Assembly (NCBI RefSeq): GCF_006345805.1
Contig: NC_043000.1
Span: 16,554,001 to 16,618,000 of the forward strand
Source: Octopus sinensis
Lineage: Eukaryota
Direction: 5' to 3'
Length of the DNA stretch: 64,000 nucleotides
The translations under genes and the position numbers were made by a program. Shown in pieces: positions 7,297-59,517 of the stretch. A model generated the notes under the pieces. It saw only the letters and a program-made list of their open reading frames with translations. It did not search any database and was not told where the DNA came from. The first letter of the stretch is position 1; each line of letters starts with the position of its first letter.

Positions 7297-7498
7297 CTAG
7301 ACATCGTCTTCCAGACACTGTCGTTGGTCAAATTCACTTGGAGTTTGCATAAACTGGTCAATAATTTGCTGCATGCTTTCACGCAATTCTTCTGGTGTTT
7401 CATTCTGTTGTTCCACACGAGACTCTTCTTGAATAAATGTTTCTTCTCGTCCGTCTCGCATGTATGTCTTTTTGTGAATTTCTTTCTTCATCATTAGG
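7297..7498 (-). CDS. Terminal coding exon of putative giant ankyrin (…SLMMKKEIHKKTYMRDGREETFIQEESRVEQ…LEDDV*)
   Basis: Acceptor ttctttctcctgctactag|C. Its phase 2 matches the donor of exon 10127-10187 (AG|C = Ser). Stop TAG at 7297-7299. Confidence 0.8.
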
Positions 7499-10126: not shown

Positions 10127-10187
10127 CTGGTAGCTTGGGCACTGTCCTCAGTTTCGGCATCAGGCGCCACATCGGAATCTCGTCGGT
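10127..10187 (-). CDS. Penultimate coding exon, 61 nt, phase 1 to 2 (DRRDSDVAPDAETEDSAQAT)
   Basis: Acceptor tctgcttccgtttctcaag|AC and donor CAG|gtaaca. GC-rich island whose phases bridge the phase-1 exons and the phase-2 terminal exon. Confidence 0.8.
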
Positions 10188-14845: not shown

Positions 14846-15412
14846 CTTTCTGATTTTCATCAACACCAGCCTCTGACTGAGGAATACCATCAAAGTCTTG
14901 GGTGGTATCGTAGTATTCAACAGCTCCATCCTCATCATTAGCATAACCACCATCATAAGTAGCATCACTGCCATCATAAGTAGCATAACCGATATCATAA
15001 TTGGCTAAGCCACTATCACATGTAGCACTGCTAATGTCATAGTTAGCATCGCCACTGTAGTAAGTAGCATTGCCAACATCATCAGTAGCATCACCAACAT
15101 CATCAGTAGCATCACCACCATCATAAGTAGCATCACCACCATCATAAGTAGCATCACCACCATCATAAGTAGCATCACCACCATCATAAGTAGCATCACC
15201 ACCATCATAAGTAGCATCACCACCATCATAAGTAGTATCACCACCACCATAAGTAGCATCACCACCATCATCATAAGTAGCATCACCACCATCATAAGTA
15301 GCACCATCGCCACCATAGTCTATACCAGCACCATCATCATAACTAGTAGCGCTGACATCATAATCACCATCATCAGGCGACTTGGAGAGAGACTCCGCAA
15401 AACTGTAAGGTT
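14846..15412 (-). CDS. Cassette exon, 567 nt, phase 1/1, encoding GGDATYD heptad repeats
   Basis: Acceptor cataattccag|AA CCT (EPYSF…) and donor CAG AAA G|gtttgc. Length is divisible by 3 with no stops. Contains a 21-bp tandem repeat. Confidence 0.7.
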
Positions 15413-16148: not shown

Positions 16149-16413
16149 AGGAGACACATACAATTTTGAAGTGCGTGTGTTTGTGTGTGTATATGTTTCA
16201 AAGTGTATATATGTATGGAACTGATATGGTAAAAAAACAAAACAAAACAAAACAAAACAACAAAACAAAAAAACAAAAAACAACCCCATCTAAAAAAAAC
16301 AAAAACAAAAACTGAATGAAAATAGAAACCCCTCCCTGAAGAACAAACTAAAATAAAACTAAGAAAAAAATCCAACAAATGTTAATAAAATTAAGTTGAC
16401 TAGTTCAAATCAC

Positions 16414-16470
16414 CTTCTGTCTTGCTCTGTGATTCTTCAGTGGACATCTGTTGTGGCAAATCTGTGTGTT
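16414..16470 (-). CDS. Small exon, 57 nt, phase 1/1 (EHTDLPQQMSTEESQSKTE)
   Basis: Acceptor gttttgtctttcag|AA and donor GAAG|gtgatt. In frame, and composition matches the rest of the tail. Confidence 0.8.
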
Positions 16471-17824
16471 CTGAAAGACAAAACAGTTCCTGGTTCAAGT
16501 ACAGACTGGTCTACCACAAATTTCTGAACTCCCTTCCATCGTCACCTCATGACCATTGGTCAATAAGCAAAGTGCAATAGTTGATTACATATAAGTACAC
16601 ACACACACACAAGCCCGCACATATGTATTATACATACATACACACACAAAATACATTCGTTTATTCTATTGCTGGTTTCAGTCACTGGACTGCTGCCATG
16701 CTGGAGTACCACTGTCAAGAGTTTTAGTTGATCACATCGATTCCCAGTGTACTGATATCAGTCCGGCATTTATTTTATTGATCTCTATTTGTTGAACAGT
16801 TAAGTTAGCTTTTTATAAAGGGATATAATACCTTGGTACACACACACACATAAACATGCATATATACAATTTTTGTTTACCGAAATTCTATTTGTAAAGT
16901 ATTGGTCAACTAGAAGAATGCAGCAGAAGATACTGTCTCCACATGTTGCACAATAGGACTGAGCCTGGAACCTCGTAGTTGTGATATGAACCTCTTAACC
17001 ACATGGCCATACTTATGTAGAGACAGACGAAGGCAAGATGGCTGAGAGATACAGGATTAGCTAATCAGAAGTTCAAATATGTTGGTTCAGCCTCAGAACA
17101 AAGTTTATCTTGCAAATGGACTTTGGGGGTTTTAGTTGAATAATTCACTCTCCAGTACATTGATACTGTACAGATTACTATTTATCAAACGGCTAAGTCC
17201 ACCAAAAGTCACTGAGCTTGTGCCTCATACTTGTGTATGTATATGTATATAAATATATATAAATACAACTATAAAGGGTAAAAATTATTAAAAATAATAA
17301 TTTGTGCTATTGGCTAGCATGCATACGAAACATTCTTATTTAGAATGTTCTTTTGTGGTTTGGGAATTTGACTGCCCTTTTTAGTATGTAAGAAGACCTC
17401 ATAGTGGTCTTCTCTCTGTGTATAAATTTTATACACTCATATTATATATACATGTACATTTCACGTGTATATACATATATAAATCATATATAACAATGAA
17501 GTCAATAGCAGTAAAGAAATCAATTGTAATATGGTTTCCACTATTTAAATATTAATATACATATCATCATATCTCCTATTTAAATATTAATGAATTAGCT
17601 ATCTCATTCCCCCATTTTTATATATATATATATATATTTTAAGCTTTATTCAGTCCAGCTTTAGATGGTATTTTCTGAAGCTAAAAAAGAAAATTATTAT
17701 TTTTATCGTTTAATGTCTGAAAACTAGTAAAATGCAATAAGCAAAATATATTTAAAAATTTTAAATAAGCTCAGTTATACACACACACAAACATGTATAC
17801 ATAGGTAAGCATATAATTATATAT

Positions 17825-18235
17825 CATCATCATCATCATCATTTAGCGTCCGTTTTCCATGCTAGCATGGGTTGGACGGTTCAACTGGGGTCTGGGGAGC
17901 CCGAAGGCTGCACCAGGCCAGTCAGATCTGGCAGTGTTTCTACAGCTGGATGCCCTTCCTAACGCCAACCACTCCGAGAGTGTAGTGGGTGATTTTATGT
18001 GCCACCGACACAGGTGCCAGACGAGGCTGGCGAACGGCCACGCTCGGATGGTGTTTTTATGTGCCACCGACACAGGTGCCAGACGAGGCTGGCAGACGGC
18101 CACGCTCGGATGGTGTTTTTATGTGCCACCGACACAGGTGCCAGATGAGGCTGGCGGACGGCCACGATCGGATGGTGTTTGTTACGTCCCCAAAGCACGC
18201 AGGCCAGTCTATGCGGTACTGGCTACGGCCACGTT
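17825..18235 (-). mobile_element. Family C retroposon with internal ~62-bp triplication
   Basis: (CAT)n tail at 17825, core ggatgcccttcctaacgccaaccac, three copies of ttttatgtgccaccgacacaggtgccagacgaggctggc…ggatggtg. Confidence 0.8.
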
Positions 18236-18347
18236 ACACACACAAACATGTATACATAGGTAAGCATATAATTATATATATATATATATATACACACACA
18301 AACATGTATACATAGGTAAGCATATAATTATATATATAATATATATA

Positions 18348-18395
<48 letters not shown>

Positions 18396-18438
18396 CACAC
18401 ACACACACACAAACATGTATACATAGGTAAGCATATAA

Positions 18439-18470
<32 letters not shown>

Positions 18471-18979
18471 ACATGTATACATGTATACAAATGTGAGCAC
18501 ACACACAAGGCCTGGCTGCTTAGCCATTAAGGTGGCATCATTCGATAATTACAACAATGCAAAGAAGTGCATTGTGACCAGTGATGCATAACATCTGAAA
18601 GTCTAGTCGATAAAGTGACACACACACACAATATTTTTCATGCATAACGTATTTATTTATGAAGACATACGCAACAACATTTAAAATCTATATGACTATA
18701 TAAACAGGCATACTTTGGTACAAATACAAAACAACAATAGTAAATAAAAAAGCAGAAAATTATATATATATATACATACATATATATACATATATATGAG
18801 TGTATATTAAAAACAATTCAGATGCTGAAACATAAAAATAACAGGGGGGGAAATATTTTGTTGCCATGGTGTTTCCGAAATGAGAAATGAGGATGAGTTG
18901 ATGGGACAAGTATAGTCAAAACGAACATGAAGATGAAATAAAAATGAACAAAAATGAAATTAAATCTACTGTAACTCAC

Positions 18980-18988
18980 CCCGTAGGT
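18980..18988 (-). CDS. 9-nt microexon, phase 1/1 (D-L-R)
   Basis: Minus strand reads aaattttgccttatcttacag|ACCTACGGG|gtgagt: strong acceptor, perfect donor, frame-preserving. Confidence 0.7.
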
Positions 18989-19184
18989 CTGTAAGATAAG
19001 GCAAAATTTAATGCTGTTCGTGTTAATTATTCTTACCCTTCTTATTACTATCATTATCAAATTGTAGTTAACGATGAACCGAATTTAAAATACTGATAAA
19101 AACAAGGAATTAAAAATGAAATAAAGAAGGATTATAAGTTTTTATGAACAGAATAGTAAAAATAAAGAAAACCCAGTGTGCATG

Positions 19185-19224
<40 letters not shown>

Positions 19225-21958: not shown

Positions 21959-22156
21959 GAAAATAGGCTGATCCTGCAACAAAAACATAGCATACTGAAT
22001 TAATTGACTACATTACAACACCAACTACTACAACAACAACAACAACAACAATAGCATGTAGAAGACAACAAATTAGCAGGCTGACATGCAACTTGTTAGG
22101 CTAGAGATCATGCAGCGTGACTGTACACTGGCTGTACGTCTAACAGTTAGATATAC

Positions 22157-22328
22157 CTCTACTGGATTTATGGACAGTAGTAGTAGTAGTAGTGTCCGAC
22201 ATACTGTGATGGTATAGCAGAGGATCGGAGGTAGCAGCAGTTTGACTGGTGGAGCTGGAGTCAGGCCGAGTCACAGCAGCATGATAGGTTGAGGAAGAGG
22301 AGGAGGAGGAATTGGAAGAGGAGTAATA

Positions 22329-22360
<32 letters not shown>

Positions 22361-25300
22361 CAGTAGTAGAGGAAACAGGAGAAGAAGGCCGTAAAACGGT
22401 AGAAGGAGGAGGTGAAGAAGTTCTAGGGTGGGAAGTTGTGTGCTCAGAAGGAAGGTTAGAAGAGACTTCTTTGTTGTTAAGTTGGGCAAAGTGATTGTCA
22501 GGAATGACAGACACTTGTTCACTGTCCCCGCCAAGTTCTTCATTATCAGCACTTCTCTTTTTAGCGTTGCGCATGGCTTCCCATTCTGTCATGGTGTAAA
22601 CCTTCTTTTTCTCTTGATAAGGACCCCAGTTAAGGTATGAGTTGTTTCTGGTTGTTTCTTCAAACTCGGTGTTCCAACGGTAGTTCCCTTCTTTATCAAA
22701 CTTTGAATATTCGTATTTATTTCTAAAGTGGCCCGGATACCCCAGATCTGTCCTAACATTGCCTTCATTATCTAAGAAAGGATTGTTGGGATGAGATATT
22801 CCTGTGATCATGCGGATTTCGGGATCTAAAGCAGATGATGTTAATGTCTTACTTGATACCGTCTTGTAATCCATTTCGGTATCGGAACTTTCAAATCTTC
22901 TATCTTTATCAAAATCTACAGATTCTGCAGACATTTGCATGACATCTCTAGAATGGCTTGAGTCACTGTGGGATTCAGATCGTAATGTTTCTTGTGAGGA
23001 ATGGGAAAAGTAAGAGCTGCTTAGACTCCAACGAGCAGACTCCAAAGAGGCTTCCATGATGTTTTGGTGTGTTAGTGCAGGAAAAGCATCAAGTGAATCA
23101 GAAGATGTTTGCATGATGTCATCTTGATCAACCAGTGAATCTGTTTCAAATTTATCAGTATCTTTCACAGTGTCTTTGAATTCCAAAGAATCTGTCGAGT
23201 CTACCATTTCTTTGCTCATTCTTTCTTTCAGTTCTAGAGAATCAGCTGAGCTTTGCATGTCTCGACTAAATTTGTCTTTTATTTCTAACGAATCAACAGA
23301 ACTGTGCATATCAAATGAAGCATCTTGGTCTAACTGCAGAGATTCTACAGAAAATTGCATTGCTGTATCATCTCCTTGCAGAGAATCTCGATCAAAGTCG
23401 AATTGACCCATTTCACTGGAATCTTGTATTTCTGCATTGGAGACAAAGATGACACTAGAAGTAAGTTCATCTTTGCTATCTCCGTCCAATGAGTCTATAT
23501 CGTCTTCTTCTTCTTTAGCCACTTGACTAACATCTTGCATCTTGGGTTCTTCAGAGCTAAGTGAATCCTTATCAATGTCGTCTCCGTCTATGGAGTCCTG
23601 TTCAATATCAAAATTACCTATTATTTCAGGTACATCCCTCATGTGACCATTTGATTGATATGAACTTCCTAAACTTTCACTTTCTGGATATTCAGGCAGC
23701 TCCCCTGATTCCAATATTGACGCTATTTTCTTGGCTTCGGCAGCAAGTTCTTCAGATATGACTATTTCTTGTTCTAGTCGTTCAAATTCGGCAAGCGATG
23801 AACTTGCACTGCGTTTGCTATGGCCACTTGATGAACTGTGGCGATCATCTCCCGAACTGGAGTATCCACCCCCAGTGCACTCTTTTTCGAGGTTTTCAAA
23901 TTCAGCCAGTGATGACATCGATCCATTTGTTGCACTACCTTGTCCTGATGGCATCAACTTGTCTATTGAACTAAACGAGCCAATTGAACCTCCGAGTGCA
24001 ATCTGTCGCTCTAGACGTTCAAATTCTCCTAATGAAGAGGCAACTGACACATCATCTCGATCAGCTGCTCGCCAATGGAAGTTTCGACTGTCAAAAGAGC
24101 TAGGCAGGCTGTGGGCTTCATTTGATCCAAGCGAGCCAAATTGTCCTATTTCACCTTCTAACCGTTCAAATTCTAACAAGGACGAAGAAACAGAAGAAGC
24201 AGCTGACCCATCATCTTTTTCCCGACTTCTGCCAGCGTAACGTATGTTTGGATAGCCGTGGGTGTGACCCACAGTACCAGGTGAGGCAGATATCATTTCC
24301 GGTGAGGTTTTGCTACTAGAATGGCTGTCAGAGAGTGCTTCCAGTTCATCTTTTTCTATCATTTCAAATCGATCTTCATCAGACTTTTCAGATATCACCG
24401 ATAAAGCAGTCTTCCCAATCATCTCAAAACGATCGCTACATGGAGAAGATTCCCCTGATTTGTCCTCTTCTGTCAACAATGGCCAGTCATACGGTTCTTC
24501 TTCTTCTGGTTCAGTATGCATTGAATAAATGTCGGAATGGATTGATGATGTCATCGACGCAACATCAGCCAAGCGGTCATCATCACACTCGTCCCCTTCT
24601 TGGTCTACGCCAACGACTGTTGTAAAGCTGTCCACACTTGATGTATCAGCAATATCTTCGGGGCTCAGAATGTCAGTGGCATGCATGACCGAAGGCTCGA
24701 ATCCAAGGAAACCGTTCTTAGAAGAATCTTTAGTTTCAGAATCCCTTTGGAATTGTTTTGAAGAACTGATAGGAACTGGCTCAGTTTTAGTTTGTAGAGA
24801 AAAGGAGTCTTCAAACGAAGAAGTGGTTGGTACTTTGTCAGGAGTTTCAGAAAATTTCTGCACATTCCATTCAAGTTCTTGTTCACTGGTGAATGTTTTT
24901 GCTGAACCAGCATGAGCATCAGCAATAACGAATGCCGAAGAACTAGGTTCATGAGATGACACTCCGTTCTTTTCGGTCTCTTCGGATTCAAATTCCATTT
25001 CATCCTGAATCATTTCAAAATAGGACATTCCTTCACCCTTTGGACTATCATCTCCAGATTCTTTTTCATCAGATTCTTTGTCTTCCTGCTCAGAGGAAGA
25101 GTCTGGCATGTGTGATGGAACAAAGCCAGATGGAACAAAGTCATCTTTGTCAATACTCTTGTGTAGGTGTTCTGTGATGGTGATCTCGGGCATGTCATCA
25201 TCCCTCTGTTTCGTGAAAGGAGGGGGATGGGAAGGTGGAGGTGGTGCCGAGAAAAAGGCTGGTTGTGACCGACACATCATTGATGGGTCAAATTGTTCTG

Positions 25301-28300
25301 AAAATGAGAAAGCAACCATTTTTTCAGATTCTTTGCTATCATCAAAAGTTGTTTCATCGATTGGCTTTTCAGCTTCTGTTTGTTCAGGGAATACCTGGGC
25401 TTTCTCCTGAACTTTGGAGGCTTCTTCAAGAACAGAGTCTACAAACACTGTAGCTGTTTTCTCAAGTTCTTCTGTGCTAATACTAGCACTAACCTTCTCA
25501 TAATCATCACTGAGGACACCTTCTTGAGAATCCTGGGGTGTTGGGGATATGGGTCTGTCCAAATCTTGTTCCCCTTTAGATGGTTCAAATGATATTTCGG
25601 GGGTTTTTCCTGCTAACGCTTCAAGTTCTTCTTCAGCTTTCTCAGCAAATTCTAGACTACTTTCAGCCAGTTCTACTTGCTCATAAGAAGCATCTTTACT
25701 TAGATCACTAAATTCTTCTTCTACCATGTCTGTACACACTTTTTCTGAAGTGTGAACAAAACTTACATCATGATCGGATTTAAGTTGATCTGAAAACTGA
25801 ACTGTTTCTTCATCAGTATCATCCAGATTAATCCTCTGATCTTCTCTAATTAGGTGGCTAACCTCTACCACACTGGTCTCTCCTTCTTGCTGTCTTTCTT
25901 TGCTTTCCTCTAACAAAGTTTCATAGCTAGACACATCAAACTCAAGTGCTCTTTTACCAGGATAAATTTCATCTTTCTTCAACTCATATGGCTGTTCTTC
26001 AAGGTCATCTAACACTGGTTCCAGTCCAACGATTTCAGTCGGTGATCTAGACTCTACCATTTCAGCTGGATATATCTCACGTTGTTCTTCATGAAATTCC
26101 ACTGTAGGGGCTTCTGTTTTAACAACCACAGATGATGTAGTTTCAGTTATGGAAACAGTAGCTGATGTTGGACCAACTTGTTCAATAGGGGAAGCTTCTT
26201 CCTCCATTGGCATTTCAAGTTCATATAAAGTCTGATCTGACGTTACCAAGACTTCCTGTTGCTCAGCCGACAACTTCACATCTTCTATCAAGCTATCGGT
26301 CATGACATCTCTGACAGCAGCATCAGAACCAGCCGATATCTGATTGTCTTCTAGTTCCATGGCAACATCTTCCTGCTGTGATTTTTCTTCTTCCATAACA
26401 TATGATGGTGAGGACTGAACCAAATCCGGTGGTGCTGCAGGCACCACAGTTTTAACAGTAGATGACACAGAATCGATGTCTGGTTGAAAATCTACCTCTG
26501 TAGGACCATTTGGTAATTGGGAGATTCTGTCGGCAGCAATGTCTTCGATATTTTCAGTTTCACTGATCTCCTCTGTAGACAAACTCTTTTGAAAAGAGTC
26601 AGAGGGTAACAAATCAGGACGGCATGCACCCGGAGATGCAACACTGGAGGCAACAATATCCATAGTGGCTGCACCTTTCTCTGAAGCATCGCTACTGCTG
26701 AAAAGTGACTGATCTGGTGAGGAATCGGTATCAGGTTTCATGGTGTGAGAACTGGGAATCTTACATACTTCTTCCATTGGAGGTGCGGATGGTTCGACAA
26801 AAGCTGTAGCACTTGCAAACTCTTCTAAACTAGACTTCATACTTGTGGGCTCACTAGCTCTGAGGTCAGCAAAACTACTTCCGGATGTAGAGAGGGATTC
26901 CACTGAAGCGGTCAAACTTGCTGTTTCAATGCATCCCGCTATACCACCTTGTAAATATTTAGCAGCATACTGATCATAGCCAATAATTTCAGTTGGTGAA
27001 ACCATTTCAAATGATTGGCCATGATCATCATCATCATCACTGCTTTCATCTTTTGAAAAGTCCTTTTCAAAACTCGAAGGACGTTTTTCAGAAGTTTCAC
27101 TGCTTACAGATCCAAACTGCCGATCAAAGAGACCTTCGGTCTGCAGCTTGTTGGCTGCGTCTTGAAGATTACAAACGGTATCTTTGATGGTGGTTGCATC
27201 TTTGGGCGTCGGTGCAGGAGTTGGCGGTAAAGATTCCGTCGACTCCGACCCCGTTTTGTCTTTGCTGACGCAAATGTCTTCTATAATGATGACCTCAGAC
27301 TGAGGCCCGGTATAACTCTTCTCAGAATCTGGCTCAGTGCAAGGCTCGTCGGTGCGAGTAGTTCCCACAGTAGGTTCAACTTCAAACACGTCATCTTCAG
27401 GACTCGAAAGAATAGCTTTAGGTGCCGGTGGATGTGGCACCTGACTCTCAATGGTGTCTGGAGACATGTCATAAGCTGTCACAATATGTGAAACATGCCC
27501 TGAATCCAAATCATACGAAGCAGCTAATAAAGTTGGTTCGTTGGATACTTCAGAGGAAGAGGTTGATGTTTTAACTAAATCTTCATTGGAAATAGATTGC
27601 CTCAGCTTCTCCTTACTCTCTTCTGATAGAAATGTTACCCTTCTATCTTGCGCTGTCATCTTACTCTCTTCTTGCTCCTCGGAGTCAGTTTTAGAGGCTG
27701 GTGCTTCAGCAATAGGAGAAAGTTCAATTTCAGGAGATTCTTTCTCTGCTTCTGAGGATTCACCATCAGCATAATGCTTCCTTCTGGCAGGGGCAGGATA
27801 GCGATCAACAGGGGGGATTTCAGACCAGAGTTCTTCCTGTAGTTCAGCCTGACTTTCATAAGTGGTTGATAACTCATCACTATCAACTGATGGTGAAAGG
27901 GAGCGATCCTTCTCATCTGCTGACTCCTGTAATAATTCTTTTTGGGCCATCCGAGATTCAATGCTTACAACACCGATTATTCCTGATTTTGGTGACACTT
28001 CTTCACTGTCTGGTTTTGGTCGAAGTTGGTGTTCTTCATCAAGATCATCTTTTGATGGAAGTTTTTCTGAGGAAAGATCTAATGAAAGGTCTGAAGACTT
28101 ACTTTCACTAGGACTGGCTAAGTCACCAGCACTCTTGGAGACCATTTCATACTCAAGATCTTTCTCTTTTAAAGTGTCTTCTCTAGATAATTCATCAGGT
28201 GATTCGGGTGCTTTTTCTTGTTTAGAAGAATGGTCATCCATTATATTAGCCAAAACAGTAGCTTCATATTCTCCAGACATCCTATCATATGGTTCAAGGA

Positions 28301-31300
28301 TATCTTTCTTGGCTTCCACTATAGACTCTTCCTCAGCTTCTTCAATATCATCTTTTTTCTTGGATGTTTTGATGACATGTTCTACAGTGGAAGTTACAGT
28401 GACATGTGCTGACTTAGTTGTCGTGGTAACATGGTCTGTTTTGGCAGTTGGTATGTCAAATTTGTCTTTTGGATCCACAGTAAAATGTTCAGTCTTAGAT
28501 GTTCTGATGACAGGTTCTTCTCTCTTGGATGTTGTGATGACACGTTCTTCTGTCTTGGATGTTGTGACGACAGGTTCACCAGTTTCAGAGGTGGTGATGA
28601 CAGGTTCTCCAGGTTCTGATGTTGTAGTGAAAAATTCTTCTGTTTTGGTTGTTGTAACATCAGGTTCACCAGTTTTAGATGTTGTTGTAACATGTTCTGT
28701 TTTTGATGTTGTGATGACAGGTTCTCCAATTTTAGATGTTGTGATGATGCGTTCTGTCCTGGTTGTTGTGACAACAGGTTCTTCACTTTCAGATTTTGTA
28801 GTAACATGTTCTTCTGTCATTGTTGTACTGACAGGTTCCTCTGCCTTAGATGTTGTGATGACACATTCTTCAGTTTTGGATGTTTTAACATGTTCTTCTG
28901 ACTTGAATGTTGTGACAACAGGTTCTTTGGTTGTAGATGTTATAATACGTTCTTCAGTCTTGGAGGTTATAATGACAGGTTCTTCAGTCGTAGATGTTGT
29001 AACATATTCTTCAGTTTTAGATGTTGTGATAACAGGTTCTTCAGTTGTAGATGTAACATATTCTTCAGTTTTAGATGTTGTGACGACAGGTTCTTCAGTC
29101 GTAGATGTAACATATTCTTCAGTTTTAGATGTTGTGACGACAGGTTCTTCAGTTGTCGATGTTGTAACATGTTCTGTCTTGGAAGTTACAAAGGCAGGTT
29201 CTTCAGCCTCGGATGCTATAGTAATGTCTTCTGTCCTTGATGTTGTGATGACAGGTTCTTCTGTTTTAGAGGTTTTGATGACAGACTCTTCTTTCTTTGA
29301 AGTTGTGATGACAGGTTCTCCAGTTTTGTATGTCGTAGTTATATGTTCTGTCTTCACTGTAGTGATGACAGGTTCCTCGCCTTTAGAAGATGTAACATGT
29401 TCTTCTGTCTTGAATGTTGAGAAGACAGACTTTTCTGTTTTAGATGTTGTGACAATGGGTTCTTCTGTTTTGGATGTTGTGATGATAGATTCTTCTGTCT
29501 TGGATGTTGTGACGACAGGTTCTTCTGTCTTGGATGTTGTGACGACAGGTTCTTCTGTCTTGGATGTTGTGACGACAGGTTCTTCTGTCTTGGATGTTGT
29601 GACGACAGGTTCTTCTGTTTTGGATGTTGTGACAACTGGTTCTTCTGTCCTGGATGTTGTGACGACAGGTTCTTCTGTCTTGGATGTTGTGACGACAGGT
29701 TCTTCTGTCTTAGATGTTGTGACGACAGGTTCTTCTGTTTTGGATAGTGCAGTAGGTTGTTTTTTTATTGTCTTGACTACAATTTGATCTTTGACAGACT
29801 CATCAAAGATATCATCTGGTTTCCTAATTTCTTGTTCAACTTCATCATCATGTTTTGACTCATCCGAACCTGTAGCTACTTCTGATGGAAACTCTTCCAA
29901 ATCTTCTGAAAGCGTGAAGGTAACCCGTTTGGGGGGTTCTTCCTCTTCTTCAGCAATAGACTCAGAGATATCTTGTTCACTAAATGTTATGTTTGAATAG
30001 TCTTTGCTACTTCTCCGGTAAAATACACCCATGTCAACTGACTGCACAGTAACTATTCCTTGTTTTTCTTGCTGTTCAAGATAGTTATCAGAGAACTGTC
30101 GGGAGAAATGATGGACAGTTTCCCAAGGTAACTTTTTGCCAGATTCTTTGTCATAGAAACCTTCACTGTCAGAACTACTGGCCTCTGGGGATATAGTTTC
30201 CACTGTAGACTGATCGAATGGATGAGAAATAATGGGCTCACTAGCTGTGGTTGTAAGATGTCTAGCTGTTTTCTCTGTGGCGTCATGTCCGGTAAGTTCA
30301 ATTCCTTCACTGGGTTCTTTTGCTTGATAGACCTTGGTCTCGGTTATCATTTTACTTTGACTTTCTGATAAAGAGACTTGTGCTCTGGATGATGTTACAA
30401 TGGTTTTTTCTGTTCTTATTTCTGAGGTAGCTTCAAATTGGCCATCGGATGTTTTAGACCTTTGGATAGATTCTTGGAAAGAGTTCTGATCTTTAGTATC
30501 TCCACTTTCTGAACGGGAGGTTTCTTCACTCTCAGAATACATTGCAGCACCACTCTCCTCATCATCATCTTTTTCAAATGAGACCTTGTGTGTTACTTCT
30601 TCAAATTTCATTGAGCTGGAAAACATCTCATTCTCTTCTGATAATTTGGTTTTCCCCAGTGCCTGGATACCCATCTGCCATATTTCTTGATGGACAGCTG
30701 GGAAGTCAAATTGATGTGACTTCTCTTCAAGATCTTCTGGAGATATTTCTTTGGCAGCAAGACTTGGACTCTCTTCAGAGAAGTCATCAGAGTGTGTCTT
30801 TATTTCACTGTCGACAACATCTTCACCAGCAAAACCCATGTTATCAAAGGCCATGGAAGATAAACGTTCCGCTCTTTCTTCAGGTGTTTCTCTTTTATAG
30901 TCATCTTCGGTTCCATCGTGTTCTTCAGACATTAATGATGTAGCAGATTGTTCTGTTACATTATCAAGCTCTAGTCTTTCCTCAGTTGTATCAGAATCAG
31001 TTGAAATCCTAGGGATGTTGAAGGATTCACCACTATCTTTCTCATATTCTACTCTGGGGGTTTTCGAGGCGATTATTTTGGACATTGTTTTGAAATCTTC
31101 AGTTGTTTTTGTTTCATAGAATTCTGAAAGAGATCCCAGCTTGGACTTAGCATTAATCTCTGATGGTGAAAGGCCAACAGTTATTTGCATGTCTTTGACG
31201 TCAAGAAGATCTTGAGCTGGAGATATTTCATTTGCTATTTCAGCAGTTGGGGACTCCACAGGGGATTGGGTGAACGAAAAGAACTTGTCTTCTAACCTAA

Positions 31301-31408
31301 GATCAAGAGCACCTTTAGAAGCAGGAGAACTTTTAGGAAGGGGAGAGAACTGCTCTTCCACATCCGTTTCTTCTGTTTTTTCTTCACTGGTGTCACGCAT
31401 CTCGGCAT
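22157..31408 (-). CDS. Giant exon 2 (9,252 nt, 3,084 codons, phase 1/1) of putative giant ankyrin
   Basis: Uninterrupted 3,086-aa ORF. Acceptor tactaacacactaatatcaccctgatttctatag|AT GCC, donor AGA G|gtatat. S/T/E/P-rich, with TSKTEEPVVT, SSLxEFERLE and DSL repeats. Confidence 0.9.
28480..29745 (-). repeat. Coding 30-bp tandem repeat (TSKTEEPVVT)n
   Basis: Near-perfect units tcttctgtcttggatgttgtgacgacaggt at 29500-29740, degenerating toward 28480. Confidence 0.95.
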
Positions 31409-34531: not shown

Positions 34532-34678
34532 CTGGCAGAAAATCTACATCTTCAACTTGCGCTACTTCGGAACTGGAGGAGCTGAGGTTCTCCTCCTCTT
34601 CCTCCTCCTTCTCCTCCTCATCCTTCGCAGCCGTTATTAATTCTCGCTGGACATCATGCTGGTCAGTACGAGGCATAT
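34532..34678 (-). CDS. Exon, 147 nt, phase 1/1 (DMPRTDQHDVQRELITAAKDEEEKEEEEENLSSSSSEVAQVEDVDFLP)
   Basis: Acceptor tctcttcttgtctcag|AT ATG and donor CCA G|gtagct. Confidence 0.85.
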
Positions 34679-46530: not shown

Positions 46531-47376
46531 CTTTCTCTTGGAATACATATGGCAAATTCCGACGAGACTTTGTCCCTGGAGCGGAATATGTTCTACTGCG
46601 GGTCTTAGACGGGTCCCATTCCGGGTCCCAAGAACAGGCTCGCATCAAAAATTCTGGGTCAGTTGACTCTGTTGTCATGCTATCATCACAGCCTAAAGTG
46701 TCTAGTCCAGACTCTACTGTTATGTGAATTTGACTGGGGTCAGTATCAAATCGTACTGACCTCTTTGCAGGTAAACATGTCAGCTCACTCTGTGGTTTCG
46801 AGCAAGCTTGAGACACAAGTGAGTCAGTCGCTGCACTCACGTTGTTCAACTCACCTTCTTTCGACTCTGCGGAATAAACAACTTGCTCGGCTTGTTCACT
46901 TGTTTCAGCGATCTCTTCGCCTGTTTCTTTGTAAAGCTGCTCATAACTTGAAGAGCGTCCAGTTGGCTGAAGATGTAGGTCAAGTTGTTTTGTGTCAAAA
47001 CGATCTCCGATGTCTAGATCACTGGCATTCATGGCTAACTTGCTGACTTCAGGAGCGAGTTGCACTCCGTCATAAACATTTTCATAACTGGACATCATGC
47101 GTTCAAAGTCTTCTTCAGTTAGAGCTCGATCATCGGAGCCGCTGTCTTCTCTACAGGGTTGCTGAGATTGTACAGCAGCTACTTGTTCGCCAAAATCAGA
47201 ACTGCTGATACTAGAATACGTGTTGTTGTCTCTAGACTGAGATGATGACATCAACGCTGGTTCAGTGGAAACCGAATCTTCATCTTGTAACGTGGAATCA
47301 GGCATCGATATTTTGTTTCCCTCACAAACAATTTGTTCAACCATCTGCTCAAATATGATCTCCTGTTTGTCAATAC
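46531..47376 (-). CDS. Exon, 846 nt, phase 1/1 (GIDKQEIIFEQMVEQ…NLPYVFQEK)
   Basis: Acceptor tgttgtttttgtgcag|GT ATT and donor GAG AAA G|gtatcg; lies inside the 328-aa ORF. Confidence 0.85.
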
Positions 47377-49760: not shown

Positions 49761-52119
49761 TAGCACGATTTCTCTTAACATTAAGCCACAGTTTGACACA
49801 TTTATCATACAAACAGAGAATTTACTCAGCCTAAATATTTCTCTTCCTCTCATACACACACATACATACATGGTATGAATGACTTATAAGGTGACCTAAA
49901 CATTTTTTTTTTCTTCCAGAGTACACAGGTGAGTATGTGTGAGTGTATGAGTCAGATATGTTCCTCAAAGCCTTTCCAATCCCCTGATATATCAAAATGT
50001 CCTCATTTAGTTCTCATACCAGGTCCAGAAAATTCAAAATAGGAACGGAAGAAAAATAAAATAAAACAACAAAAAACAACAACTAAAAATATATATATCA
50101 GCTTAGTAGGAATAAATCATGTGAGAATTGGTAAACATTACAACAGAATCAGCAAACAACAAATTTCTAGTGCCATGCTCATGCAGCAGATTGTCTGCCA
50201 AGCAAAGGAAGGAACTGTTAGTAGGTACCAGGTTAAAGACCTCCGTTTCACCCACAAAATCAATGGTCAACCATTTCAATCAACACTGTATGTTAGAATA
50301 GGTGTAACATTCACCTGAATGTTTTGGGGAAACAATCTACACACCTGGCTGTTTGGATGTGCAGATTCAATATGATATAGCACCTAAGGGTAGCAAGTCA
50401 TCAGGAGTCCCTACAACTTAGTAGTAGGGGTTTCATTACATTTGGTAAGCTGTTCCACCACTGTATATCTCACAGTGCCACTTCAAATCGGCCCTTCTCA
50501 TGTCTAGTTTATAGTTGTAGTACTTACAGAATACCTCCTACTTTTATACATCAATTACTTATATGGTAAATGTGGTACTTAGATAACATCTCTACAAGTA
50601 GTCAGTGTTGCACTGTATCATCCAACTGTCTCTTCTACCACTACTATAACAGTTCCTGCTTCTCTGAACTAGAAAGCTGCATTACTAATCCAATTGAAAC
50701 TAATCCAATTCACCTATCCCTACTGTGCCTTATACCTGAACTAAAAAAATAAAAAAAATTTCCATAACCAATTCTCCCCAGGATTACAGCTCTCAGGATC
50801 TCCCTCTGTTTAAATTTCCCTTAAATACATCTATCTAAAGAAGTTAACATCAACTACATCAGTCAGAGAAGAGGTAGGACCCTCATCCCCACCACAAAAA
50901 AAAACAAACAAAACAAAACAAAGAAAAACCAAAAAAAAAAAACCCATGAGCTGTGGAACTATACTTTATCAGCTTTATCTTGTCATTACTTCACTATCTA
51001 TATTTTACATAGATTTCAAAACTGAGAGCATTTACTAAGAATATAATCCTCTGAAACTTTAATCTTATCCTGAGAATGTATATTTGCTATATTTATAATT
51101 ACACTATAATTCATTTGATTTCAAAGCCATCATAATCAGTTATTTAATTACAGGGTGTATACGTAGTTCCATACAGAATTTGAACCAGCAACCTTTAATT
51201 CTACACTAGTTATATAATAGTTATATAATAATTCTACACTAGTTATATAATAGTTTCTGCAACACATTGCTCTGCAGCATTAGTAGAGAAGATCATTCCT
51301 ATGATCAAAGGTATTCCAACCATGACCATCCAATTTTTTTGTGGGTATATAGGACATCATCATCTGTGTCCTTATTTGGAATGGTAGATATGATTTGTAT
51401 GTAATTTGGCTGCTATTTCTGACAGGTCGAGTGATCATGTATAAACTCCCTCAGTGGCTCATCTCTGTATAGTGTAGTCAATAGGTGGTTCAACTTTGTG
51501 GAGACAGTCTCCAAGACAAAGTCTGAACACATTTTTACAAGCCAATGAAACATTTGCCAATTTATACACAAAACTAGAAATTTATAGGATGGAGATTGGA
51601 AAGGGTAACTGGAAGTTGTCCTGTTTATGCTTTTCAAAAGGATATTACCAACTTAAAATAAGCCCCAACTAAGGATTAAAATTGAGATGAAACATTTAAA
51701 ATTTATTTGTTGAAATTTTAACTGCCACTAGTCTCCACAATGTTAACAATGCTAAAAATAATGGTTTTTTTTTTTTTTTATGCAGATATTAAATCTAAAA
51801 TTGTAAAGCAAGGAGAAATGAGAAGCTGTGATAGTCATGCCTCTCTAAAAAGCAATAGTGACAGAGTGGCAATGTCCCAACAGGGCCACTGCTTACTAGC
51901 TGGAACTAGTAAAAGAATGTACATGATATATTTACAACAAAGTATTGAGACTGGGTCACTGTCTAGGTTCACAGAAAATTTATGTCTAGACTACGCTTTG
52001 TGGCACTCATCAATAACAACAACAACAACAATAATAATAACAATAATAATGATTAAAAATCACAATGAAGACTAAGTGGCGACTCTCCAGTATGAAAGTC
52101 AAACTATAATAATAATAAC

Positions 52120-52491: not shown

Positions 52492-55400
52492 CTTTTAGAT
52501 CAGCATCTGCGGTGAACTGATCATCTCGTGTGGGAGCGGATGGCTGTTGAGCAAGCTGTTGACTAGTTTCATCTCGGTCTTTATCTACTGATTCATACTC
52601 GTCTTCAATCTCAACTGCTGTTAAACCATTATCCTGTAACCCGAGAGCTTTGGCAAGTTCTTCCTGCTCAAGGGATGTTAATAGTGTGAATTCTGATGGT
52701 GACGGAGGTCTCTCTTCATCCTTTTTCAGGTCAGACTCCTCTTGTTCAAGTTCAGCTTCTCTGCTTAATTCGATGCTCATTCTACTATCGATGTCAGACT
52801 GTGAATCAAGCGAACGTCTGAACTCTTCTCCGATTTGGGATTGTGTCATCGGGTCAATCATTGATTGGGTCAATGATTCATGGGACTCGATCATCGACTG
52901 AGTCATTATGTCTTGATCGTCAACCACAGACTGAAGTGCCTCATGAAGTTCCAATTGGGATTCAGTCATGAGTGTGTATTCAGTGGGTGACAGGGGTCTG
53001 CCATTGCTGTCTTTGTCGGTCTTGTCTTTTAATGGGTACTCAATACTCTCGGTCATTTGATCAATTGCCCTCAGTTTTTTGATGCGTTCAGTTGAATAGT
53101 ACTCACCAGAACTGTCATCATCATCGCTGGCACTGGGAGTAGCTGAACGTTCCTGTGCTTCGGTGGAAGAAGATGGGACAAGGATGTTACGGGCACCCAA
53201 ACCACTTCCATCACGGTGATAAGAGGAGAAGTCAGAGGAGTAATTCGTATAGTCATCAGTTATGTGGGAGTTGTATGAAGTGAAATCTTCAGTGAAATTC
53301 ACTTTATCAGTAGCAATCTTGTGTGACACTTTCTCGGTTTCTTTTAGAGATTCAGATGGAAACAGCCCAGTACTCTGTCCAATAGTTGATTTCTCATTGG
53401 TCAATGTGCTGGTTTTAGTGTCGGTTATTTCCTGGACTGTTTCCTGTTTCCCTAAAAAAGGAATCTGATCTTCTTGGGGTTGAACAGGTTGTTGGCTCTT
53501 TGAAGGGATATCACTGTCTTTCAGTGTACCTTTCCGAACTGATGTTACGTCTTTGTCTGGGTGTAAAGGAGGAAACCTGTCGGTGGCATTAAAATCAGGC
53601 CCACCATTTCTCTGAACAATTCTGAAGTCAATCGTGTCCCTTTGTTGATGTTCAAAATATTCTCGTCTGTCAATAAACTGGTCTTCAGCTTCAGTCTCAT
53701 CAACTTCTTCTTCAACAAGATCTTCCATTCTTGTTGAGGTCATTAAATGACCACTCCTTGTTAAAGCCTCCATTTGTTCGTTCTCCTCATCACTATGTTC
53801 AATGAAAGAATGGTCGCTCTCACCCCCAGAATCTTCTCCTTCAATTACTTCAAGAACTCTAGCTGTTTCAGGTTCTTTTAATTCAACCACTTCTTTGTGA
53901 AAAGTGTCTTCGTGTTGTACGTTCTCCTCAATTTCAGATGTTTGAGATTTGAACTTTTTGTCTGTTTTATCAATTTCCATCAAGTCATCGGTGATTGTCA
54001 TGCTCAGCTTGGACTCATCCTTTACAGCTACTTCTTTTTTAATTTCTTTCTGGAAATCATCTTCTCTGCTGACAGTATCAGTGACAATTTCCAGTTTAGA
54101 ATCTTTCTCAGTCAGTTTCTGTTCCAAATCTTCAATTTTCTGAATTTCTCCGTCTTTCGATTCTTTTTCATACTGCTGTTTCCCAATCTCTTCTTCAAAT
54201 GACTTATCACATACAGATGACTTTTCTTGACTTATTTCTATCTTGGTGCCATCTTCTTCAAAAGTCTGAGATTTCCCTTCAGTCAGTTCACTATGCATTT
54301 TGAGGGCATCTTTAGTTGTTAATTCTTCAGTTGTTTCCTTTTGAAACTCATCTTCTACAGTTGCCTGTTCCCTTTTACTCTCAGACTCTACATCTTTTTG
54401 TTTCACTGAACGAGTTTCATCTTTGATTGATTGAATTTCATCACCGACAGTGGTCGATCGGGTAGTACTCTCCTCTGTTGTTGCGGTTTCTGATCTCTTT
54501 ACTTTCACATCTTCAATAATCTTTGATTCTGATGTGAATTTGCTGGGAGTTATGTCGTCAAGAACTTTACGTTCCTCAATAGAGCCTTCATGAACTGTAG
54601 TTTCTTGAACTCGAGTTTCTTGTTTGAAACTCTCGTTCCTTACTTCTTTGTTAGAGATCTCTTCTTTAACAAGTTGTTCCTCTGATGTTTGAAAAGGAAA
54701 TGATTTTGTAAAGTCTACTTGATCTTTGTCAGTACTCCTCCTCGATAGATCATCATCTGCTCCACTTTTAAAGCCACTATCTGTAATATCTTCAGATCTT
54801 TTCTCCATTTCATCTGTGACATCTATACTCTGAGATTTAGACATATAATCCATTTCTGTCATTATGTCAACATCATCATGATCATCATCATCGCTCTCAT
54901 CATCACTCGATAGATATTTCTCTTCTTGGAAGTCGTGAGGCGAAGTTTCTTTAAACTTAGCATCAGACTCTGCTTGTAAAGCAGCAAGATCAACAGAATA
55001 TTTCTCCTCAGTTCGGTCAGAAGTGTCATCCTTGGCTACATGTTTTGGAGATTGCTCAGTTAGGGGAGATTCCGCTTTGGGAATGCTTCTAATACTCTCC
55101 ACCGATGTTTCATGTGCCAAGGCACTAGATACTAAAAAAGGATCGGCACTAAAACTAAGACCATCGCTTTTGGCCGGTGTTTTATATTCAATTTTTTCAG
55201 GTGAGGCAACTGTCATGAACTGCTCTTGCCTGCTGATTTCAAAATAAGTAGCTTCCTCTGACAGAATGGAACTAAACTGAGGTGCTGTTTTCTTTGAGGT
55301 ATCAGTTTCCTGGATTTCTTCAGATGTTTCCTCATCAGATGTCATGTCCTGCTCATCTTCTACACGGTATTCTTGGGAGATTTTACTTGAATACACAGAT

Positions 55401-58400
55401 TTCTCTTCTTTGCTGATACTTTCTTCTATCATTTCAGATGTACTTGATGTTTTATATTCTGATGTTACTGTGGAAATCCGTTGTTCATGAGTAACGGAGG
55501 TTTGATCTTTGGGTGAAGTATACTTTTCTTCTTCTTCTTCCTCCTGACAGCTCTTTTCATGTGTCAGGAACATTTCCAGAGAACTACCTTTGGATCCTTC
55601 ATCTGAAGACAAGTCTTCTTGTACAGGGAATTCATAAGTTATCTCTGTTCGATCACCCAGATCTTTTTTAAGATGGTCTGCTGTTGGTGATAATCCCGGT
55701 GACTCTGTCGAGGATACCTTTTTCTTGGAGTCCTCATATGACCTCTCAGTGAATTCCTCTTTTGTTCTTTGATCAGTGTGAGTAAATATTTCATCTGATT
55801 CCTCATCTGAAACATCCTGTAATTGTTGTAATCGTTTGACTGCTCTTTCTTGGGTTTCTTCAAGCACTTTTTCTCTAATATCTTCCTTTAAAGCATCCAG
55901 CTGAACCTCTACTAAACTCTCATCAGACATAGATTCAGCCTGTCTGTCAAATCGTTCAGTAGCTTCTGGTGCTGGAGTCTGCCACTCATGAATTTCTAGT
56001 TTCTCTGGAGAGTCTATAATCATTTTTTCTTCCTGTCGAGAGATCTCAAACAGTTCACCAGACGATGATTTTCTAGTAATTTTTTGCTCCACAGGTGAAA
56101 CCTCAACACTGTCAGCAGGTACACTTTCCACTACTTTACTCTCCTGTACGTCATCACATACAGGAGATCGCATCTCGTTTTTTGAAAGAAAATCTTTCTC
56201 ACTAGATATAGTTGTGCTTTCCTTATCTTCATCTTCAATTACTTTGGTTGTGTGTTCAGAGATGGTTGTTGACACTTCCTTGACAGAGGTTGTGGAGACA
56301 ATGGTGTGCACATCCTTGTCAGCAAATTTGCTTGAGATTATGTCTTTAGATGGCTCGGGCTTCGATGTATAGAAACTGCGAGATTCCTTTTCTAAAAAAA
56401 CTTCTCTCCTTGAGATTTCATAATCAGTATCTTTGTGAGGTTCTTCTTCTAGTTGTGTCTGAAGGCCATCATCTGGTGGCTCAGCTCCATGTTCTTTTGG
56501 AGGACAAACCTTGTCAGTTGATGAAAGATCAATAGCAGCTGGTTCGAACGGTGTCTGGCGCTCTATGGAAATTTTGGCTTCCAAAATTTCCTCCTGCTCA
56601 ATAATTTCAAAATCTTCTTCATCATAGGGCTTAGGACAAATTTCAGAGGCCTGAGGCTCTGGGGAAGATGCTTTCAGCTGTGGTTCTGGTGAAGGAGACT
56701 TGAGTTGAGGCTTTGATGATAGAATCTTTTCTTTAGGTTCTGGTGAGGGAGACTTTGATTTCAGACGTGGTGGAGAGGGTGACTTAGCTTTAGGTTCTGG
56801 TGAGGGAGACTTTGACTTTATGTGTGGTGGTGATGGAGTTTTCTCTTTAGGCTCTGGTGAGGGAGTCTTCCCTTTAGGTTCTGGTGAGGGAGACTTTGAC
56901 TTCAGGTGAGGTGGTGAGGGAAGCTTTGACTTTAGGTGAGGTGGAGAGGGAGGCTTATCTTTAAGTTCTGGTGAGGGAGACTTTGACTTTAGGTGGGGTG
57001 GTGATGGAGTCTTCTCTTTAATTTCTGGTGAAGGACTCTTTGACTTCAGGTGAAGTGGTGAAGGAGCCTTATCTTTAAGCTCTGGTGAAGGAGACTTTGA
57101 CTTTTGCTGAAGTGGTGAGGGAGTCTTTGATTTAGGTTCTGGTGAGGGAGATTTTGACTTTAGGCGAAGTGGTGATGGAGTCTTCTCTTTAAGTTCTGGT
57201 GAAGGACTCTTAGACTTAAGGTGGAGTGGTGAAAGAGACTTGTCTTTAGGTTCTGGTGAGGGAGACTTTGACTTTAACCGAAGTGGTGATGGAGTCTTTT
57301 CTTTAGGTTCAGGCGAGGGAGACTTTGACTTTAACCGAAGTGGTGAGGGAGACTTATCTTTAGGTTCAGGTGAGGGAGATTTTGACTTTAACTGAAGTGG
57401 TGAGGGAGACTTATCTTTAAGTTCAGGCGAGGGAGATTTTGACTTTAACTGAAGTGGTGAGGGAGACTTATCTTTAAGTTCAGGCGAGGGAGATTTTGAC
57501 TTTAACTGAAGTGGTGAGGGAGACTTATCTTTAGGTTCAGGCGAGGGAGATTTTGACTTTAACTGAAGTGGTGAGGGAGACTTATCTTTAGGTTCTGGTG
57601 AGGGAGATTTTGACTTTAGGTGAGATGGCGAAGGGGATTTTGATTTTAGGTGAGGTGGTGATGGAGACTTCTCTTTCAGATCTGGTGAAGGACTCTTTGA
57701 CTTAAAGTGGAGTGGTGAAGGAGACTTGTCTTTAACTTCTGGTGAGGGAGATTTTGACTTTAACTGAAGTGGTGAGGGAGACTTATCTTTAGGTTCAGGC
57801 GAGGGAGATTTTGACTTTAGGTGTGGTGGCGAGGGGGACTTTGACTTTAGGTGAGGTGGTGAGGGGGACTTATCTTTAGGTTTTGGTGAAGAAGACTTAA
57901 GTTGTAACTTTGGTGAAGGAGTCTTATCTTTAAGTTCTGGTGAAGGGGACTTTGACTTCAGGTGAGATGGTGAGGGAGACTTATCTTTAGGTTCTGGTGA
58001 GGGAGACTTTGACTTTAGGTGAGGTGGCGAGGGAGACTTTGATTTCATGTGAGGTGGTGATGGAGTCTTTTCTTTAGGTTCTGGTGAGGGAGACTTTGAC
58101 TTTAGCTGAAGAGGTGAAGGAGATTTATCTTTAGGTTTTGGTGAAGGAGATTTCTCTTTAGGTTCTGGTGAAGGAGTTTTCTCTTTAGGTTCTGGTGAAG
58201 GAGTTTTCTCTTTAGGTTCTGGTGAAGGAGTCTTAAGTTGGGGCTCTGGTGAAGGAGACTTAAGTTGGGGCTCTGGTGAGGGAGTTTTCTCTTTAGCCTC
58301 ATGTAAGCGTGATTTCAGCTGAGGTTCTGGTGAAGGTGATTTATCCTTAAGTTCAGGTGAGATATCTTTATCAAGTGAGGATATAGTTTTGTCCAAAGTC

Positions 58401-59517
58401 TTAGATGATAAAATTTGGCTATCTTCAGAAGTGAAGATCTCTTTTACTTTGCCATCATCTACAGAATATTCTACTTTCTGTTTCATTTCTGTTGTTTCAG
58501 TCTTGAAGCTCTTCTCAACTGATGATACAGTTTCTTTACTCTCTTTAGGAAATTCCTTCAAATCAGGAGTTTCCCCTTCTGAAGAAATGCTTTCTTTTTT
58601 CTCTTGGAATACGTGACTTTCCTTTATCTCCTGGACTGCACTTTGAGAAGAATCAGTTTTCCAAGATTTTGTCACTTCTTTTTGTACTGTTTCTTTGCTA
58701 TCCTTGTCAAATGACATGGCCTCTTTCTTTGACGGCTTTTCACGAGTTGTAGCTTCCTCAAACTTGGCAATCAGTGATGAAGTGCTTTCGCGTCGTTCTT
58801 CAACGACTTCACTTTTTTGCTCTCCTGTAGAAGACACTTTTACAGTTTCAGATCGGATTTCACTCGTTTCAGATGCAGTTTGGTATGACCTTTCACTTCC
58901 TTTCGAGGTAGTGTCTGGTGTTTCTTCATCAGAGCTTAATAACTCATCAGGTTGAGTTGTGACATAATAATTTTGGGCATGTTTACCAGTAAACATTTTC
59001 AGTTTCTCAGAAAATTCAAGATTTTCATCATCTGAGGGAGTCTTAAAGTGGGCGTCGGGCGGTTCCGGGACACCGTAAGGTTGATCAACATCATCAGCTT
59101 TCTCTGAAGATTTATGTTTTGCTAAAGTGCTTGTGTGAACTTTGGTGGCTTCACGTATAATAGTTTTTTCAGACATGGAGCCATTCTTAATTTTGTCCTC
59201 AAATTTCTCTTTGACAGCAGAGACTTTTACCCATTCTTCTACCTTTGGAGCAGAATCTTCTGTTTCAACATAAGTACCATTGGCTGATGGCACCTTTTCT
59301 GCATCAAAGCCATCAAGATCGCTGTCGTCAATGACAACCCACTCAGAAGAGTCTTGCTTTACGAATTCCTGAGATTCTTTGCGTAACGTTGCTTGTGCTG
59401 ATTTCTGGACTTCACGAACAATGTCTGTAGCTGAACTTTGCAAAGCAGTGTCAGATGTTTGCTCAAACATTTGAATAATAGAAGCGACTGATCTTGTTTT
59501 ACCCTCACTCTCATCAT
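52492..59517 (-). CDS. Giant exon 1 (7,026 nt, 2,342 codons, phase 1/1) of putative giant ankyrin
   Basis: Uninterrupted 2,353-aa ORF. Acceptor cccttgatag|AT GAT, donor CTA AAA G|gtatat. Contains a KSPSP repeat array and LIR-like motifs. Confidence 0.9.
56660..58345 (-). repeat. Coding repeat array (KSKSPSPEPKDKSPSPLQL, 57-bp higher-order unit with 27/30-bp sub-units)
   Basis: Visible in both the translation and the DNA (ggtgagggagactttgac repeats). Confidence 0.95.

Follow-up and report, generated by a model that had tools for sequence, protein, structure and literature searches.

The window, a 64,000-nt stretch of the Octopus sinensis genome (NC_043000.1, positions 16,554,001 to 16,618,000), carries on its minus strand the two giant exons and the terminal exons of a gene that, on its sequence, is an octopus giant ankyrin with the protostome layout. 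Matches to the ZU5 domain (C4:16743658) and the death domain (C4:16711298) lie on the same strand outside the window, at upstream distances of 126 and 93 kb, respectively, and the protein P0068 and its full-length relatives contain ANK, ZU5, UPA, and death domains (Pfam). Giant ankyrins of protostomes include Drosophila Ank2, C. elegans unc-44, and the Aplysia ankyrin; PMC5135030 describes them as having one or more long exons behind the death domain with about 25% Ser+Glu, and gives the giant-exon isoforms of fly and worm as neuronal.

All exons of the gene within the window are on the minus strand. The first giant exon, G1 (52492..59517), is 7,026 nt long and encodes 29.0% Ser+Glu, and the second, G2 (22157..31408), is 9,252 nt long, encodes 28.9% Ser+Glu, and has an internal alternative donor at 22205. 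Both are identical letter for letter in the RefSeq O. sinensis isoform P0085, and a Pfam search of the two exons returned no match. An annotated cassette exon (46855..47376) lies between G1 and G2, and an annotated 147-nt cassette exon (34532..34678) precedes G2. Downstream of G2 are a 57-nt exon (16414..16470), which is its direct partner in all annotated isoforms examined, a 61-nt penultimate exon (10127..10187), and the coding part of the last exon (7297..7498); a search for homologues of the last exon, restricted to lengths of 117-2000, found none. This exon map was built by mapping 21 O. sinensis isoforms onto 464 kb, and these isoforms show the gene to be heavily alternatively spliced.

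Several other features of the gene were recorded. RefSeq names the octopus proteins 'titin' or 'uncharacterized', though they are ankyrins. G1 contains a long K-S-P-S-P repeat array, which we take to be neurofilament-like; G2 contains a 10-residue Thr-rich array, which is missing from the decapodiform relatives. At 46531-47376 (minus strand) the frame stays open for 324 nt past the annotated donor 46855 up to a good donor at 46531, which is unused in all 21 mapped O. sinensis isoforms. A 567-nt phase 1-1 exon-like open frame at 14846-15412 (minus strand), rich in Gly, Asp, and Tyr and built around an 18-copy 21-nt tandem repeat, is either an unannotated cassette exon or an intronic repeat; its start peptide was in none of the proteins compared. 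Reading through the G2 donor (22140-22156, minus strand) adds five residues and a stop that are the same in octopus as in four open frames of decapodiform type, whose identity elsewhere is about 65%, and the start of the following intron (22070-22120, minus strand) contains CTAAC and two RBFOX-like TGCATG motifs; this region may be a conserved giant-exon enhancer or an alternative C-terminus. A real 18-nt microexon lies before the ZU5 domain (C4:16756462-16756479, minus strand), with a UC-rich upstream tract whose last 20 nt are without TGC.

The candidate 9-nt microexon is located at 18980..18988 of the minus strand, in the 5.7-kb intron between G2 and the 57-nt exon. The initial annotation had described a 9-nt unit here with an acceptor, a GTGAGT donor, and an upstream TGC, and the minus strand contains all of these elements. 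The 9-mer has a single occurrence on that strand of the window (18988-18980), preceded by a pyrimidine tract that ends in CAG and followed by GTGAGT, and the 301 bases surrounding it are single-copy, with one match in the genome. Its donor (18974..18979) scores 9.0 bits, above 39 of the 57 real donors of the same gene, and so deserves the description as strong that it had been given, while the acceptor with its short pyrimidine tract (18989..19008) reaches 12.4 bits and beats 48 of the 55 real acceptors. The TGC in this tract occupies 19003-19001 and starts at -15; the earlier spelling of the tract was right overall and contained one T too many, there being four T before the G and not five. 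A weak branch-point-like TTAAC (19022..19026), with its A at -35, may serve the acceptor. The candidate is 9 nt long, has no stop codon, and keeps the frame (phase 1-1), and since every exon between 62403 and 16414 is likewise phase 1-1, the claim of frame preservation in the phase of the neighbouring exons holds. Phase and position also agree with the proposed insertion of D-L-R just after the giant exon, should the 9-mer be included, and the 1000-fold size contrast between neighbouring exons is borne out by the lengths (9252/9 = 1028). The sequence and splice signals of the candidate are confirmed, which does not by itself confirm that the 9-mer is spliced in; with its use unproven, we place the chance that it is a real exon somewhat below even.

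The strength of these signals was judged with splice matrices trained on 55 acceptors and 57 donors of the same gene, with real sites scored leave-one-out, one probably mis-mapped donor removed from the training set, and the sites of the 18-nt exon added. With a joint score of 21.4 bits the candidate is the best of 634 unannotated AG..GT pairs of 3-27 nt that the sense introns, about 404 kb in all, contain, and the sole one among them at or above 17 bits that combines a length divisible by three with a TGC. Control DNA totalled 828 kb, comprising 428 kb of antisense sequence and a 200-kb MADD region read on both its strands, and held two pairs at least as strong, neither of which was both divisible by three and provided with TGC. 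Among the 129 control pairs of at least 14 bits, 48 had a length divisible by three and 27 a TGC. These control frequencies predict about 0.08 candidate-like matches for each gene and about 0.007 for each window, an expectation that is post hoc, with the threshold fixed at the candidate's own score and very many windows scanned. One of these two strong control pairs, an antisense 9-nt AG..GT pair at 49920-49928 of the window (plus strand), scores 26.2 bits, more than the candidate, and is without TGC; it was used as a chance control and could itself belong to an antisense transcript. MADD is reported to contain an ancestral 9-nt neural microexon (bioRxiv 2026.09.05.749416). Used as a positive control, MADD yielded no clear 9-nt candidate with the gene-trained matrices (best 12.7 bits), which leaves the scan uncalibrated in its sensitivity to genuine eMIC exons of octopus. 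The candidate is moderately more than chance would provide, and it is unusual, yet the chance rate is probably of about the same order as the rate that we would guess for equally strong real unannotated microexons.

The annotated isoforms give a uniform picture of the junction. Neither D-L-R nor any other 3-residue insert occurs between G2 and the 57-nt exon in any of 77 annotated cephalopod isoforms examined, which comprise 21 from O. sinensis RefSeq, 23 + 15 from O. bimaculoides RefSeq, 15 from O. bimaculoides UniRef, and one each from O. vulgaris, Argonauta hians, and Sepia pharaonis; three of the clusters were covered for 15 of 99, 15 of 19, and 15 of 17 members, and the 77 derive from a few annotation runs and are not independent observations. 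The junction to 16470 is made from the distal donor 22157 in 74 of the 77 isoforms and from the internal donor 22205 in three, the corresponding figures for the 21 O. sinensis isoforms being 19 and 2. The internal donor lies 48 nt inside G2, is found in two species, and deletes 16 residues when used. In 9 of the 77 isoforms the 61-nt exon is skipped (16414 to 7498), with a frameshift and an immediate end of the protein. The same annotations resolve the 18-nt exon (12 of 12 isoforms checked), a 30-nt exon, and splice-site shifts of 3 nt and 6 nt, and the smallest exon that they capture in this gene is 18 nt. A 2-residue 'KR' event had been considered as a microexon positive control and was rejected, being an alternative donor. 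Short-read annotation pipelines often miss exons of less than about 10 nt. Skipping of the 9-mer is certainly annotated in giant-exon isoforms, and these data suggest that it is not included; inclusion and neuron specificity, both proposed earlier, are unsupported, as the giant exon is followed immediately by the 57-nt exon in 77 of 77 annotated isoforms examined.

Targets of the eMIC domain are described, in PMC8797185 and bioRxiv 2024.09.17.613571, as having a UGC by a weak 3′ splice site, a long AG-free zone, longer UC-rich tracts, and strong branch points; the latter source gives UGC in 79% and 74% of targets and states that it is not strictly required for an SRRM4 response. Of these and related properties the candidate shows a frame-preserving length within 3-27 nt, a UGC between branch point and AG (the TGC at -15), and a strong 5′ splice site of the mammalian type, its donor exceeding 39 of 57. 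The TGC alone is a weak sign because it also occurs in 8 of the 55 ordinary acceptors of the gene. The 3′ splice site is not weak, being stronger than 48 of the 55 real acceptors, and the AG-free zone is short at 23 nt versus a median of 42 for the real acceptors. At -20..-60 the pyrimidine share is 0.30, below all 55 real acceptors and as low in 3 of 129 control pairs, and one TCT/CTC stands upstream versus a median of 5, so a distal UC-rich tract is absent; no CTRAY is present within 100 nt upstream that could provide a strong CUAAY-type branch point. Since two defining features of the eMIC architecture are lacking, the candidate is not classed as an eMIC target. The genome does encode a regulator of this kind. 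An exon on contig C11337 (11167-11301, minus strand), which ends in phase 2, matches the eMIC domain PF15230 with 32.6 bits against a cut-off of 27, and the second half of the Srrm234 domain is found in a phase-compatible exon at C2298:1406-1432 (plus strand), located with a motif-based search pattern; the two contigs are probably linked, so that the exons would together encode one eMIC domain. The proposed eMIC/UGC activation is upheld in the position of the TGC, the strong donor, and the presence of the domain in the genome, and fails in the upstream architecture and the acceptor strength.

Two further signals lie close to the candidate, and both had been overlooked when the UGC at -15 was pointed out. 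Immediately downstream of the donor, at 18854..18973 (minus strand), is a cluster of YCAY motifs, 8 in 100 nt and 9 in 120 nt, which may be NOVA/Pasilla-like or a degenerate repeat. None of 57 real donors and none of 181 other pseudo-microexons scoring at least 14 is followed by a cluster as dense, which is reached in 65 of 7,983 sense intron windows, or 19 of 7,308 without simple repeats. The cluster was noticed post hoc, and 284 of 3,187 windows show some tetramer class equally extreme, so that it amounts to about a 3-9% event once the several motifs looked at are allowed for. The cluster is at the same time a degenerate TTCAT/CTCAT repeat, with YTCR more extreme still, and at its far end the downstream intron has a single YCAY. 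As described in PMC3165201, Nova and Pasilla enhance inclusion from just downstream of the donor; were the candidate used, this cluster, a putative NOVA-type site, would be its more distinctive signal. The second signal is an unannotated exon-like unit of 56 nt (19037..19092, minus strand; acceptor 7.5 and donor 9.3 bits), located 48 nt upstream of the candidate, which in phase 1 would bring in a stop at its third codon. Pseudo-exons as strong number 9 in the sense introns and 8 in antisense sequence.

Contigs from sequencing runs were compared over the region 16330-19200; runs X1, X8, and X21 are RNA by our guess, and X20 is DNA of another organism. Contig joints and loose ends in this region are dominated, in four runs, by a repeat at about 17850-18240; among those listed, no junction speaks for inclusion or for skipping. 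The 57-nt exon has a high contig depth in the RNA-type runs X1, X8, and X21, and in X21 it is deeply covered with next to no G2 words. An unspliced X1 contig crosses the candidate over 326 nt with no difference. An unspliced X8 contig piece of 331 bases has a single difference, G>A at 18983 (plus strand), which falls inside the candidate and would turn its Arg codon into Trp; this is a CpG site, seen in one contig with no matching DNA. Being unspliced, both contigs are uninformative on inclusion. In X20, 18922-19200 is covered by short pieces only, with no differences listed. Metagenome contigs provided no cephalopod locus for the region and only two distant loci.

Several readings of these observations were compared, and the odds attached to them are a weighing and not a computation. 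The reading that we favour, at roughly even odds, is that the 9-mer is a cryptic microexon that is normally skipped; skipping is likely because all 77 annotated isoforms examined splice past it. A 9-nt exon would be too short for joint recognition of both splice sites without a helper, and the upstream intron has none of the features that eMIC proteins build on, namely a distal pyrimidine tract, a long AG-free zone, and a strong branch point. Given this lack and the competing donor 48 nt upstream of the candidate, the spliceosome would use the acceptor at 16470 for the giant exon, whose donor is 22157 or 22205, and the TGC and the YCAY run would be chance features of an AT-rich, microsatellite-prone intron. 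Signals and scores are observed and the direct junction is annotated; inclusion would be negligible. The chance pairs of equal strength (2 in 828 kb) favour this reading, as does, weakly, the Arg>Trp difference in X8; against it count the first rank among 634 pairs, the downstream YCAY cluster, and the encoded eMIC regulator, together with the blind spot of annotation for exons below about 10 nt and the partial examination of the isoform clusters. It is possible, though distinctly less probable, that the 9-mer is a real but minor cassette microexon used in a subset of neurons, in which the donor would be reinforced by a NOVA/Pasilla-type protein bound to the YCAY motifs, perhaps assisted by an eMIC protein at the UGC, and the likely disordered tail behind the giant exon would gain D-L-R. 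Such use would fit the best pair in about 404 kb, with its length divisible by three and its TGC, in a host gene that is heavily alternatively spliced; the 8 YCAY in the first 100 nt stand in the enhancing position of Nova/Pasilla (PMC3165201), the UGC-type architecture is, by bioRxiv 2024.09.17.613571, not strictly needed for an SRRM4 response, and a neuron-type-specific microexon near a giant exon is known in mouse Ank3 (PMC13046794). It is opposed by the absence of the insert from all 77 isoforms examined, by the post hoc status of a YCAY cluster that is also a degenerate TTCAT/CTCAT repeat with one motif only at the far intron end, and by the missense difference in X8.

The model of the initial annotation, a classic microexon switched by eMIC (Srrm234) through the UGC at -15 and included at a high level in most neurons, appears unlikely. 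The TGC, the strong donor, the length divisible by three, and the eMIC domain found in two phase-compatible exons of the genome (PF15230, 32.6 bits) agree with it, but the direct junction is annotated in 77 of 77 giant-exon isoforms, a type of isoform that in fly and worm is the neuronal one (PMC5135030), four of the tested architecture features fail, and TGC is shared with 8 of 55 ordinary acceptors. Less probable still is a composite element in which the 56-nt unit, or a 113-nt exon spanning 19092-18980, would place a stop codon three codons past the giant exon, so that the C-terminal tail would be lost or decay triggered and the 9-mer would be an alternative or a by-product; the 48-nt spacing would forbid joint use of the 56-nt unit and the 9-mer. 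This element would account for the purine-rich stretch at -20..-60, with its acceptor and donor (7.5 and 9.3 bits) it belongs to a strength class that has only 9 pseudo-exons in the sense introns, the chance of finding one of these within 100 nt being about 0.2% (a post hoc figure), and decay-bound forms are expected to be missing from protein annotation; on the other side, it was identified after the fact, has no transcript support, and is matched by eight equally strong antisense pseudo-exons. We regard as similarly improbable a neuron-type switch at the end of the 9.25-kb exon, which would choose between the 9-nt exon (D-L-R) and the 56-nt exon 48 nt away (tail cut) by means of a NOVA-type enhancer made of YCAY motifs together with the UGC of an eMIC target; such a switch would have arisen convergently with the Ank3 microexon of vertebrates and would have been missed by all annotations.

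If the 9-mer were nonetheless used, it would be a named, testable cephalopod neural microexon in an axon-organising gene, and would extend the pattern reported in bioRxiv 2026.09.05.749416, in which the same old genes have repeatedly gained neural microexons; even so, it would join a well-described class, contributing three residues to a low-complexity tail. If it is not spliced in, as the cryptic reading holds, the case counsels caution, in that a UGC and a good donor are insufficient to call a microexon. Neither this exon nor any cephalopod neural microexon was found in the literature searched, which consisted of open-access papers and the main texts of preprints.

Among known systems, the host gene resembles Drosophila Ank2, C. 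elegans unc-44, and the Aplysia ankyrin in its ANK-ZU5-UPA-death domain order followed by two tandem long Ser/Glu-rich exons, and differs in no respect of kind from the protostome giant ankyrins described in PMC5135030. The candidate is like eMIC/SRRM4 (Srrm234) microexons in being 3-27 nt long and frame-preserving, with a UGC near its 3′ splice site, a strong donor, and the regulator domain encoded in the genome, and unlike them in its strong 3′ splice site, short AG-free zone, lack of a distal UC-rich tract or strong branch point, and flanking introns of 3.2 and 2.5 kb. With the cassette exons enhanced by Nova/Pasilla it shares a YCAY cluster immediately after the donor, whereas its intron lacks a second cluster at the far end (PMC3165201). 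Its nearest parallel in an ankyrin gene, as presented in PMC13046794, is Ank3 E35a, a proven 27-nt exon conserved across vertebrates that precedes the giant exon and sits between the UPA and death domains. Like E35a, the 9-mer would be a tiny in-frame exon in a disordered linker near a giant exon of an ankyrin gene; the octopus candidate, in contrast, is 9 nt long, follows the last giant exon, is not homologous, and is unproven.
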